Source: Naegleria gruberi (Eukaryota). From it: a stretch of 64,000 bases of DNA. The translations under genes were made by a program, and so were the position numbers. The stretch lies in assembly GCA_000004985.1 (NCBI GenBank), contig GG738923.1; one strand, written 5' to 3'. Position 1 is the stretch's first letter. The number at the start of each line of letters is the position of its first letter. The notes beneath the pieces are model-generated. The model was not told the origin of the DNA, did not search any database, and was given only the letters and a program-made list of their open reading frames with translations. This document shows, in pieces, positions 44,265 to 49,645 of the stretch.

Positions 44265-45236
<972 letters not shown>

Positions 45237-45544
45237 TCAATGATGGGTACTTGTATTAATAGGTTATTGGACGTTAAAAATAGAATTAATGGCGGTTTGC
45301 TGTTACAACGTGAGTTCATCCTCGCTTCAGCACGTTTAGATTGAAGAGATTCAACTCCACATCCATATTCGCTTTCAATCCATTAATACACTATTGCCAT
45401 TTTACACAACCAATCAACTTTTAACATCATCAACCTCATTACTTCAATCGATTGGATGAGAGAGATATGGTAAGGTAATAATCCATTTTCCTTCCAATGC
45501 TGTTGTATTAGATATGATACCAATTAGTTACTAACTGAACAAGT

Positions 45545-47026
45545 TTAATCGCCACTCAAATTTAAAATCTTATTCTTGATGGCAGTATCGATAGCATTCA
45601 AATATTGAGACAAATCTACAGAGCCATTAATGTGATTAAGATAGAAAGCATGAGAAAGGAATGGAAGTTTTCTCAGAGATCTTCCACTCAAACCCTCACA
45701 ACTCTCTGCAATTTCTTTCAGCTTTAATGCATAGGAATTTTCTGGTGCCTCCTTATCTGTCCATTTTGGTATTATTACATTTGGTTTGATAACTGAAACT
45801 CTCATCAACTCTACAAGGCATGATCTCAAAATTGAATATCTTCCCTTAGCGGAAGGTGGTCCAATATATTGCTTAATATCTGCTCGATCAACAAATGCCA
45901 AATCAATTGCCTCTGTAATGTTTGATGTTGTTAAAATGAGGACATTCTTATACCTCTTCAATTGATCCAATTGTGTTAATAGAGCATTTACAACTCTGAT
46001 ACTATCTGAAGGCTCACTTCCTGAAAGAGCACTCTTTCTGGCAGCCGTCAGTGATTCAACTTCGTCCATCAAAACACATACAAATGATTCCTCATCTTCT
46101 ACAATTTCGAATATTTTCTTGAATAATTTCATTACTAGTTTTCCACTTTCACTAAACCATTTTGAGAATAAACTGTGTGAATTAATTTCTATTAATGTAC
46201 CTCCTGATGGATATCTGTGTGACATTCTAATTGCCAGTTTCTGGGCCAATCCTTTACATAAAGATGTCTTTTATACACGAGTTAATTTATCAATAAATCA
46301 TAAAACTAACCTTTCCTAATAATAATTGTCAAAACACATTTGAAAAATAATGTAAAACAAACCTGTTCCTAATTAATGTGTTAAAAATTCAATTAAATTC
46401 AAAATACAAACCTGGAGGTCCATAGAGTAACACAACTCTATTCCAACTAATTAAATTTTGGTCAACACCCAAATCAGAAAAACGCATTGTTGTTGCAGCA
46501 TATTCCAATAAATTATATTTTACATTTTCATCAAAAATCAAACTTTCCCACAATCCATCAAATGAATCATTAGGAAGTGTCGATTGTTTACAAGCAGTAA
46601 CCTCTTCAACATCACCTCCCTCATCTGTTGTTTCCTCTATTGGTTCTTCATCAGTAGATTTAAAAACATGAATTATAAAAGTTACGTCTTGGTTAAATAG
46701 AATTGGTCCATTGTAGGCTGGATGTTGTTCCAAATCCACAATTTTAATTTGTTTAACATGTTTTACAATTAATTCTTCCCTTTCCGAAAGTTGGTGTTGT
46801 TGATTATTCTCGGAAGATAATGAAGATAATTGTATTGGAATGATTCCGTCCTGTATAATTGGCCTCCTATTGATAATCATCTCATGTACAGCATCTTGAA
46901 TAAGTTTAGGTTTGACAGTACTTTGTTGTTTTAGACAAACTATATAATTGTTAGCCAGCCTTTAAAATGATGACAATTTTCACTTTACTCACCTTCAATA
47001 TGAACTGGTGGAAGACTTGCTTGCAT
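45545..47026 (-). CDS. TRIP13: TRIP13/PCH2 AAA+ ATPase. Five exons: 47026..46993, 46939..46412, 46368..46363, 46315..46311 and 46267..45545.
   Basis: Exons 1 and 2 give [23 protein letters not shown], matching the TRIP13 N-terminus. The Walker A motif GPPG|TG|K|TSLCK is assembled from two micro-exons (GAACAG and GAAAG) flanked by introns of 43, 47 and 43 nt. The C-terminal AAA domain matches TRIP13. Confidence 0.75.
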
Positions 47027-47110
47027 TTTATTTAATTTTACAAAACAAGTTCAGCCTGGATTGAAATTTGAGGAAGACAGATATTGTGTGTGAATTGTAT
47101 AGAGACTGAT

Positions 47111-49645
47111 TTATTGACTTGTTTCTCCTTCATTCAGTATATCAAATAAATTAAAGTTGACCTTGTATCTTGAAGTGGGATTGGGTGTTTCTATTGATTT
47201 TTGATTCATCATTTCGCTCATTGTTATAGTAGATGGCAATGAAAGAGTATTCATGTCTAGTATTGAGTGGCTCAGACTCAATTTGGATTGATTGGTTTTC
47301 TTTTGTTGCTTTACGACTGGCTCTGGTTCCTTTCTAAAATTTTGTTCAATATACTGTTCTGCCTCTGAATTCAACTCATTGTAATTGGTTTTGACTCTCA
47401 GTATTTTACCGTCAATATCACCAGCAAATATTTCATCTTTTTCTTCATCAAACGAAACTGTAGAGAATTCTGCCTTCTTATCTTCAAATCTGAATAATAT
47501 ATCCTGAGAACCCTTTTCTGCATTAAATCTCCAAACTTCAACTCTTCCCTCTTTAAACCAACTCATAAGTCTTCCATTTCCAGCATAACACATTCCTAGA
47601 ACTGCACCTGTGTCACTCTCCAAAGAAGCTAATTTCTCCCTAGTATTTACATTCCACAAACCAATTGTCTGGTCTTCACTTGCAGTGAAGAGAAAGTTAC
47701 CATCAAGAACCATTGACACAACAGCACTCTTGTGACCACTTTCCTCATTGTTTTTCCTTTTAGCTTTGATTTCACCAACCAGAGGAATGTCGTCTTCAAT
47801 TGCCCAAAATCGAATCATACCATCATTTCCTCCCGTGATGACAGTCTTATCCATAGGATTGAAAACTAGGCATAGAATTTCTCTATTGTGAGCATTTTGT
47901 TTCACTTTGAAAACAGGATTCTGCTTTTCAAATAAAAACCTAGATAAATCGCAGACAGCAAATGACCCATCAAAACTTGCCGTCACTAATACTAGACATT
48001 CTTTCTTCTCACCTCCAAAGAACTTATTGTTTGTTAATCTTCTTGGAGAAAAAATTGTGGGTTTAGATCGGTCCAAAGAAACATTGGCCTTAATGATATT
48101 ATACACGGAGTTTTGATGTAGTTTAATATCTACGTACTCCCTTCCTCTTTCCAAATTCCATAGTGTGATGTGACCACTATCATGTCCAGTACATCCAATG
48201 CCATCATCCACATAAATGAAAGATGTAATTTCTGTTTTGTCACCTTTTGGAGTGTATTTGATATTATCGAGAGGTTTCATGTCAAACTTTGAAACTTCCC
48301 ATATAACAATTTTGTTATCAGAACCTGCAGTGATGAGACGAGCAGTTGCTGTCCTTTTAGTATTCAGCCCAATCCCAACAATTGCATCAGTGTGATATTT
48401 GTGTTCCTTATGAGGAATATTTCTTTCTATCGAAAATGTTTGAACTCCATTCCTTCCTGAAACAATTATCTTTTTAGTAAAGAAAGATAAACATGTTGGT
48501 TCCTTTCCAAAATAAAATGATAACGATGTTTCACCAGTTCTATACTGGTAAATATCTACCTTTCCAGATTCTGTAACTGTTATCAACTCCTCATGTTCGT
48601 CATCCCAATCCATTCCACAAATTCTTTCATCTCTCGTAAATTTGCTGAATACTGTTTTTCCACTGTAATCTGTAAATTTAACTACATTGTCAAAACCAGT
48701 TGACACCATCATATTGCTTCCTTGCAACATTAAGATGTTGGTTATACCCTTATCTCTCATTTTTAATTTGTACATTAACTTGACATCCACTATTGATTTT
48801 CTATCTCTTAATTCTCCAATTGTTTTATATACATAACAAGTTCCCTTCATCGTTCCTACTACTATTTCTCCTTGTTCTCCTGATAAGTCCTCGGGAGAAG
48901 CCCACAATGCACTAATCCATGCATCGCAATCTGTCAATGTTTTAAAACATGAAAACCAAGGTATTAAATTGAGTTTCTTCCTCTCTCTATCTGGTTTCCA
49001 AATTTTTACTAACATATCCGAACTTCCAGATATTATCAAATCGAAATGAAATGCCAGACTTGTTACAGGTTTTACATGAGAAAACATTGCTGTTAAGATT
49101 TCATACCGTTATTCAAATATTCAAGTTACTACCTACTCTGAAGGCATGAATTCTCTGCAAGATATTTTCCAAAAGGATCAAATACTAAGCAAGTTTTTTA
49201 ATTTAATTTGGTACAAAATCCTTACCTTTCATTGAATGGTCAACACAACCAGTTACTATTAACTCGAGAAATGGATGATACATTATACAAAGAACAGCTG
49301 CTGAGTGGGTTCCGAGCTTGACATGTTTTCCTACTACTTTTTCATCCCCCACTGGATTACTGTCATAGTTCCAATATACAACCTCTCCTCTTGCTGATGT
49401 TGTGAGAGTAATCATTAAATCATGCTATTCAACATATCTACATACCATTTCCTGCAAATATTATTAGTTTGCCATCCCTCTCAACACACGTATGACAAAG
49501 AAACCTAGGGAATTGTTGATTTGCTCTCTTTCCGAAATGTTGTGGTTGAGAATTGGGAAGAGTAAACTGTATTAATCCATAAAAACAATATAATAATCGT
49601 TAAATTTGTGATGATGCTTACATTCTTCCCCTGAGCAATATTCAT
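47111..49645 (-). CDS. WD40-repeat protein (tandem beta-propellers, EML-like), at least 5 exons: 49645..49622, 49566..49446, 49393..49226, a possible small internal exon, and 49089..47111.
   Basis: Many WD repeats. Exon 1 (MNIAQGKN) has an 'aaaaaaaATG' context. Introns of 55 nt (49567..49621) and 52 nt (49394..49445) are in frame. The gap 49090..49225 (136 nt) may contain a micro-exon. Confidence 0.6.

Follow-up and report, generated by a model that had tools for sequence, protein, structure and literature searches.

A predicted P-loop spread over micro-exons of six and five nucleotides in the TRIP13 gene of Naegleria gruberi

TRIP13/PCH2 is an AAA+ ATPase that remodels HORMA-domain proteins. 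In a stretch of 64,000 nucleotides (nt) from the heterolobosean Naegleria gruberi (assembly GCA_000004985.1, contig GG738923.1), which was analyzed as a whole and is called the window in the following, the gene for this protein runs on the minus strand from 47026 to 45545, and its catalytic P-loop (Walker A motif) is predicted to be assembled from four exons, two of which measure only 6 and 5 nt. The explanation that we consider highly probable is that of a single functional N. gruberi TRIP13/PCH2 gene with three introns in the P-loop region, the first two of which were most probably inserted later than the third. The gene model with three introns and two micro-exons became publicly available with the deposition of the N. 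gruberi genome and is not a discovery of this work. We contribute tests that set the model apart from chance, a correction of its 5' end, evidence for a probably young age of two introns, and the finding that introns occupy the same codon positions in other eukaryotes.

The spliced gene was assembled by script from the minus strand of 45400-47200 and consists of five exons and four short introns (53, 43, 47 and 43 nt), giving a stop-free open reading frame (ORF) of 1296 nt or 431 codons. Exon 1 (46993..47026, 34 nt) starts with the ATG at 47026 and carries 11 residues and the first base of a Val codon. It is followed by intron 0 (46940..46992, 53 nt, phase 1, GTGAGT...CTAAC...ATATAG), in which the A of the branch-like CTAAC lies 11 nt from the 3' splice site. 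Exon 2 (46412..46939, 528 nt) encodes what remains of the TRIP13 N-domain together with the first part of the AAA+ module and ends with ...LLYGPP and the first G of a Gly codon. Intron 1 (46369..46411, 43 nt, phase 1, GC 0.16, GTTTGT...TTAAC...AATTAG) separates it from micro-exon 1 (46363..46368), the six nucleotides GAACAG, which end this Gly codon, encode Thr and open the next Gly codon. Intron 2 (46316..46362, 47 nt, phase 1, GC 0.19, GTTTGT...TTGAC...TATTAG) precedes micro-exon 2 (46311..46315), the five nucleotides GAAAG, which end the second Gly codon and encode the Walker A Lys. Beyond intron 3 (46268..46310, 43 nt, phase 0, GTTAGT...TTAAC...ATAAAAG), exon 5 (45545..46267, 723 nt including the TAA stop) contributes TSLCK..., Walker B DEVE, the pore loop, the Arg-rich GLSGRSLRK and the TRIP13 C-terminal lid. 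Introns 1 to 3 are thus packed within 11 coding bases. With slashes marking exon junctions, the joined codons read CCA G/GA ACA G/GA AAG/ ACA TCT TTA TGT AAA and are translated as GPPGTGKTSLCK, that is GPPG/TG/K/TSLCK; the junction string of the full model across both micro-exons is GGACCTCCAGGAACAGGAAAGACATCTTTATG. All four introns have their own GT and AG, a GC content of 0.16-0.30 and a YTRAC motif with its A 11-14 nt from the 3' splice site. Those bounding the micro-exons are canonical GT-AG introns with GTTTGT or GTTAGT donors, TAG or AAG acceptors and YTRAC 12-14 nt upstream of the acceptor.

When the sequence is read without splicing, two minus-strand ORFs appear instead, 46389..46880 and 45545..46249, which correspond to pieces of 163 and 234 amino acids (aa). 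The upstream ORF ends with ...VVLLYGPPG, continues with LYFEFN and then meets a stop, and the downstream one encodes the remainder of the AAA+ ATPase. An earlier note on this DNA, prepared by a model from the letters and a list of ORFs, had named this ORF pair, the coordinates, lengths and ends of the three introns and the exons GAACAG and GAAAG, and all of these proved exact when checked to the base; its statement that removal of the three introns recovers the P-loop motif was borne out as well, GPPGTGKT being present solely after their removal. The frame tolerates little deviation from this pattern. Skipping the 6-nt exon keeps the frame and yields GPPGKTSLCK, a Walker A motif two residues too short (junction CCTCCAGGAAAGACATC), while skipping the 5-nt exon causes a frameshift with a stop after four codons (junction CCTCCAGGAACAGACATC) and skipping both micro-exons likewise shifts the frame. 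An early stop is reached when the whole P-loop region is left unspliced or when intron 1 is retained, and retention of intron 2 or intron 3, neither of which has a length divisible by three, would break the frame as well.

Several lines of evidence indicate that the fit of the model is more than chance. We listed every way of linking both ORFs in frame and free of stops by removing one to three GT-AG introns with a minimum length of 20 nt. Seventy such paths cross the gap, and just one of them, the model with three introns and two micro-exons, encodes GxxxxGK[ST]. When the 144 nt between exons 2 and 5 were shuffled 3000 times with dinucleotides preserved, the motif GPPGxGK[ST]SLCK was never restored, and of the 16,140 GT...AG intervals with lengths of 120-169 nt that occur naturally in the window, solely those overlapping the TRIP13 locus restored it. 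The same three introns and two micro-exons are found in L006 and L007, two independent assemblies of the environmental metagenome run ERR1078381 with about 99% identity to the window, which rules out an assembly artefact. Over the whole gene, these differ from the window by 10-11 substitutions, one of which falls in intron 2 and two in the branch region of intron 0; in L006, the latter two turn CTAAC into TTAAC, so the branch motif is preserved. The confident short introns that an ORF-joining screen returned for the window measure 40-53 nt and mostly use GTAAGT as donor. Introns of 43, 47 and 43 nt are therefore of typical size, and the TRIP13 introns also agree with the other short introns in base composition and in the YTRAC branch motif. 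As judged from the sequence, the removal of three introns that would leave exons of 6 nt and 5 nt is supported.

The earlier note had proposed an alignment of the spliced product to TRIP13/PCH2 proteins as a check, and all TRIP13 domains and ATPase motifs indeed match in the spliced protein. Searches of the 431-aa model against Pfam gave TRIP13_N (PF23563, E 2.3e-12, residues 5-108), AAA (PF00004, E 8.7e-25) and AAA_lid_TRIP13_C (PF23242, E 2.2e-24, residues 330-424). The structure of human TRIP13 (6lk0) was matched with E 2.5e-111, and Walker A, the pore loop KWFSESGK, Walker B DEVE and GLSGRxLRKLP align, the alignment including the segments VLMDEVESL and EGLSGRVLRKLPFL. The closest named homologues stem from two heteroloboseans, Willaertia magna (65% identity) and Acrasis kona (56%). 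Both large exons show dN of about 0.1-0.20 against relatives, at dS values of 1.5 or too saturated for an estimate: exon 2 gave dN 0.15 and dS of about 1.5 against the Naegleria-like contig L003, and exon 5 gave dN 0.11-0.12 against L003 and L005 with saturated synonymous sites. The C-terminal part compared with L006 yielded dN/dS 0.05, a value based on few changes. Neither stops nor frameshifts occur across the 431 codons of the spliced ORF, and this intact frame together with the mostly synonymous divergence indicates that the gene is functional and under purifying selection.

Two other readings of the region dispense with micro-exons and have to be weighed against this background. If a single 160-nt intron (46411..46252, GTTTGT...AAAG) were removed, CCTCCAG would be joined directly to GATTGGCCCAG (junction string CCTCCAGGATTGGCCCAG) and GPPG to LAQKL, and the product, devoid of TGKTSLCKG and hence of a P-loop, might act as a regulatory or inactive isoform. 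In its favor, it is the sole single-intron path that is stop-free and in frame, shares its strong donor with intron 1 and passes the ORF-joining screen. However, it drops the TSLCKG codons, which immediately follow the intron as coding sequence in L003 and L005 and are conserved in every other TRIP13, it leaves unexplained why GAACAG and GAAAG lie between perfect splice signals, and it costs a gene under purifying selection a motif essential for ATP binding. We consider it very improbable as an explanation of the locus; such a form could occur as a minor isoform. An even smaller probability is assigned to a TRIP13 pseudogene, or a split or inactive protein, in which two insertions of about 45 nt destroyed the P-loop and the micro-exon model fits by coincidence. 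Such a view accounts for the breakage of the raw ORFs into 163 aa and 234 aa, the very pieces that are also reported by prokaryote-style callers, but both insertions have the form GTTTGT...TAG, a branch motif and typical intron length, no other stop or frameshift is met over 431 codons in a genome with 34% GC, and divergence from relatives is strongly biased to synonymous change. Furthermore, TRIP13 has been reported as expressed (bioRxiv 10.64898/2026.08.18.745565), and the 2017 orthologue set contains one N. gruberi TRIP13 (PMC5579357), no intact second copy being known.

The protein deposited for this gene in GenBank and RefSeq (XP_002669761.1, identical to EFC37017.1; NAEGRDRAFT_82071; UniProt D2W1S8) is named "predicted protein" and has the same sequence as NGRU015420_TRIP13, a protein of 400 aa that starts with MIINRRP and is the single TRIP13 listed for N. 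gruberi in the orthologue set of the kinetochore survey by van Hooff et al. (2017; Dataset EV1, PMC5579357). Its 400 residues are residues 32-431 of the 431-aa model and include LLYGPPGTGKTSLCK. Since only one path in this genome encodes the LLYGPPGTGKTSLCK stretch, the deposited model already holds both micro-exons. It starts at an internal Met (46880) and lacks exon 1 and the 53-nt intron 0, and consequently the conserved ...PVHIEV..., which is part of the 31 residues that the corrected 5' end adds to the deposited protein. In this corrected version, exon 1 is joined to exon 2 as ...CATATTGAAG followed by TTTGTCTAAAAC. Support for exon 1 comes from the TRIP13_N match, which begins at residue 5, and from the alignment of the N-terminus with MNTIPVHVEV... 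of Willaertia, in which PVH[IV]EV is conserved; the position of intron 0 is common to Willaertia magna (L001) and the Naegleria-like L005. An exact look-up showed that the 431-aa version is absent from the protein collection. The deposited model is correct across the micro-exons and truncated at its 5' end.

That gene models cannot be built from ORFs alone in this region, as the earlier note had put it, is well illustrated by prokaryote-style callers, which report two pieces without the catalytic loop. In L006, such calls (P0122 and P0225) split TRIP13 into "proteins" of 163 aa and 234 aa, and XP_002669761.1 itself is concealed in a 90% cluster that is represented by an ORF fragment of 234 aa. 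A related case is the prokaryote-style call P0004 (L008 482-1756), which reads through an in-frame intron of 57 nt and thereby gives GPPGTGKNHTNVINTIVTNSSYSIGKTSLCK. We found no published text that comments on the micro-exons of N. gruberi TRIP13, and none of the literature pairing Naegleria with the term microexon is about N. gruberi gene structure, judged by title or abstract. A 2026 preprint, in which N. gruberi kinetochore-related gene models were reviewed against 829 M RNA-seq read pairs (Kennard et al. 2025), eight models being corrected, and in which TRIP13 is described as expressed and down-regulated in mitosis, makes no mention of the micro-exons of TRIP13 (bioRxiv 10.64898/2026.08.18.745565).

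Comparison with other TRIP13 genes was revealing with respect to the age of the introns. Our survey comprised 91 TRIP13 loci and drew on 80 loci from a scan of JGI metagenomes that returned no closer Naegleria relative above 66% identity, and in 77 of the 91 GPPGTGKT is encoded contiguously. The more distant Naegleria-like contigs L003/L004 and L005, the C-terminal parts of which share 85-88% protein identity with the window, have a contiguous GG(A/T)CCTCCTGGAACTGG(A/T)AA(G/A) followed by one intron exactly at the position of intron 3, with a length of 164 nt in L003/L004 and 37 nt in L005. The whole P-loop is uninterrupted in Willaertia, Acrasis and L009, which have none of introns 1 to 3. 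Within the Naegleria clade, introns 1 and 2 are confined to N. gruberi-type sequences and are absent from L003, L005, Willaertia and Acrasis. In L005, the 12 P-loop bases read GGAACTGGAAAG without interruption, and G/GAACAG/GAAAG of N. gruberi matches 11 of these 12. The lone difference is a synonymous T-to-A change which, together with a CCT-to-CCA change in the preceding Pro codon, creates CAG/G at both new donor sites. For this single gene, a neighbor-joining (NJ) tree calculated over 231 columns taken from the C-terminal part (200 bootstrap replicates) has the topology (Willaertia,(L005,(N. gruberi,L003))) with bootstrap values of 100/96/89%.

Outside this group, unrelated environmental eukaryotes carry introns at the same codon positions and in the same phases as N. 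gruberi. Position 1 (CCA G/GN) is occupied in L012 (31 nt; 535-600), L015 (49 nt, GTTTGT; 996-1080) and L084 (86 nt; 1094-1210), and all carriers have a CCA Pro codon and therefore CAG/G. Position 2 (ACN G/GN) is occupied in L008 (57 nt, TACTAAC branch; 962-1060) and in L050 and L056 (both about 1104-1210). At both boundaries of the L008 intron AGGTAA is present, as would be expected from a short duplication that created the intron. Another position-2 intron is probably present in L018 (1-90), a very AT-rich eukaryote (18% GC), where a tandem (AAAAATT)n-like run of low complexity leads into an AG acceptor and then GAAAAACTTCTGTTGCAAAAGG; this contig starts after the upstream exon. Position 3 (AAR/ACN), which L003 and L005 share with N. 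gruberi, is occupied only in the Naegleria-like set among the 91 loci. The other lineages each have one of the three introns and hence no micro-exon, and all three are combined only in N. gruberi-type sequences. No intron was found at positions 1-3 in the representatives of plants and animals, Marchantia and Patiria; in Patiria miniata TRIP13, it is the first Gly codon that is interrupted by an intron, 9 nt farther upstream. The earlier note had called a P-loop split over micro-exons striking, and the structure as such is confirmed, yet introns in the TRIP13 P-loop are evidently not peculiar to N. gruberi.

By this comparison, intron 3 appears as the older, shared intron, predating the divergence of the sampled Naegleria-like lineages, and introns 1 and 2 are most parsimoniously interpreted as later gains on the N. 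gruberi branch at CAG/G proto-splice sites. Their insertion would have cut the ancestral contiguous GGAACNGGAAAG into micro-exons. The alternative is that introns 1 and 2 are ancient, dating back to the heterolobosean ancestor or beyond, that N. gruberi kept them while Willaertia, Acrasis and the remaining Naegleria-like lineages lost them, and that the micro-exons are relics. It draws on the sharing of position 1 with L012, L015 and L084 and of position 2 with L008, L050 and L056, on the grouping of L008 and L012 with the heteroloboseans in the NJ tree (77% bootstrap) and on the general observation that 30-50% of N. gruberi intron positions are common to other supergroups (PMC3174169). What speaks for gains is that N. 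gruberi is sister to L003 (89%), so that, under retention, introns 1 and 2 must have been lost precisely and independently at least three times, and on two of these occasions intron 3, only 5 nt away from intron 2, must have stayed in place. Moreover, Marchantia and Patiria are free of introns at positions 1-3, and the CAG/G shown by every position-1 carrier is the context expected for insertion into proto-splice sites. An ancient origin is possible in our view and rather doubtful. For the positions shared between distant lineages, we favor the P-loop codons as a proto-splice-site hotspot for parallel insertion over old introns that were often lost. The wider claim, that the 12 bases for Gly-Thr-Gly-Lys are a recurrent eukaryotic intron hotspot and that N. 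gruberi documents a young and datable birth of micro-exons through gains 6 nt apart beside an older intron, is one on which we are evenly divided.

We also considered an origin of introns 1 and 2 from introners or transposons. A search with up to three mismatches detected no further copy of either intron within the 64-kb window, and the similarity of introns 0-3 to each other was no greater than that of composition-matched shuffles. This origin is unsupported by the search, which is a weak negative as it covered the window only.

How could such a transcript be processed? With typical introns of 40-55 nt, splice sites would be paired across the intron (intron definition), and exon length would not be limiting. 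Very short introns are recognized in this way by default, and intron definition has also been put forward for micro-exons in general (PMC8378409). The introns would probably be removed one after another because spliceosomes should be unable to assemble side by side at a distance of 5-6 nt, an argument likewise made for a 1-nt exon of Arabidopsis (PMC4674806). Correct removal of introns 1-3 would lead to GPPGTGKTSLCK and a full-length, probably active ATPase. It is speculative that the triple-intron cluster acts as a splicing gate, for instance by regulated skipping of the 6-nt exon, which would produce a subunit defective in ATP binding that poisons the hexamer.

Several observations weigh against the overall picture drawn here. 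The GenBank model may be a homology-guided prediction and as such does not constitute independent experimental proof, and no transcript-derived full-length TRIP13 copy was present among the matches in the protein collection. Introns 1 and 2 use GTTTGT, the less common donor, whereas most confident introns of the window use GTAAGT. Sequential intron removal is extrapolated from other systems. The gain scenario is derived from the NJ tree of a single gene and from environmental contigs, and introns at positions 1 and 2 in other eukaryotes would also fit an ancient origin followed by several losses.

As to the cellular role of the protein, HORMAD and Mad2 orthologues of N. gruberi have been listed (PMC5579357), and a p31comet homologue was reported in the 2026 preprint (bioRxiv 10.64898/2026.08.18.745565). 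This context would fit remodeling of HORMA clients (Mad2/p31comet, HORMAD) by N. gruberi TRIP13.

Directly upstream of TRIP13, in the same orientation and 84 nt from its start codon, the window contains a large WD40-repeat gene (47111-49087, minus strand). A WD40-repeat gene is also the upstream neighbor of TRIP13 in L003/L004 (L003 1-2008), and in Willaertia a WD40 gene is located on the other side of TRIP13 on the opposite strand. A neighboring ORF of the window is identical to N. gruberi XP_002669764.1 (NAEGRDRAFT_82074). Another gene, at 44265-45182 on the minus strand, encodes polyubiquitin. Compared with the other repeats, its repeat 2 lacks one nucleotide near 44951 (ATGCAAATTTT-GTCAAG) and carries one extra nucleotide near 44822 (GATCTTTCGCTGG). 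Roughly 43 middle codons are thereby shifted to a different frame, and translation in the first frame ends behind ...GGMQILSRL. Introns were rejected as the cause of these ORF breaks, which are single-base frameshifts. They represent either a real compensating pair of frameshifts or sequencing errors in T-runs.

The findings do not overturn current understanding, and the gene is best described as a tidy curiosity of intron evolution. It has practical implications nevertheless: ORF-based or prokaryote-style gene calling yields two TRIP13 "proteins" that lack the catalytic loop, and such fragments are found in public collections. N. gruberi encodes a TRIP13 with all ATPase motifs, which is relevant to the spindle checkpoint and to meiosis, a process yet to be observed in this amoeba. 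In the context of intron evolution, the gene offers a compact case with three introns in 11 coding bases, two of them apparently recent and at positions that appear to have been used independently elsewhere, and it may be of use for studying insertion into proto-splice sites and the order of intron removal around exons of 5-6 nt.

Exons as small as those of N. gruberi TRIP13 were described as rare in the earlier note, and this is true, but they are well documented. Ultra-short constitutive micro-exons are known from plants and include 1-nt exons in APC11 and VPS55, 9-nt exons in AP2 and invertase and, in rice, an adjacent pair of 5 nt and 12 nt that was validated by reverse transcription PCR (PMC8831610, PMC4674806); they frequently escape standard annotation and annotation from ORFs (PMC8831610). 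Plants and N. gruberi have in common that internal coding exons of at most 15 nt are bounded by canonical introns and contribute to core protein motifs, and the intron definition and sequential removal by which the plant exons are thought to be spliced would also apply to N. gruberi TRIP13. The plant micro-exons are backed by direct RNA evidence and have been conserved over hundreds of millions of years, whereas the N. gruberi pair is known here from sequence, measures 6 and 5 nt between flanking introns of 43-47 nt in a heterolobosean host and appears to be young and limited to one species-level lineage. Neuronal micro-exons of animals (3-27 nt, dependent on SRRM4 and PRP-40) share with it the tiny size that renders exon definition sterically implausible, and they, too, have been suggested to be recognized across the intron next to them (PMC8378409). 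The animal exons are alternatively spliced, regulated by tissue, flanked by long introns and usually multiples of three in length. In N. gruberi, by contrast, the introns are tiny, the 5-nt exon is needed for the frame, and inclusion of both exons must be constitutive for function. The predicted N. gruberi TRIP13 pair would thus be a member of the documented class of ultra-short constitutive micro-exons.

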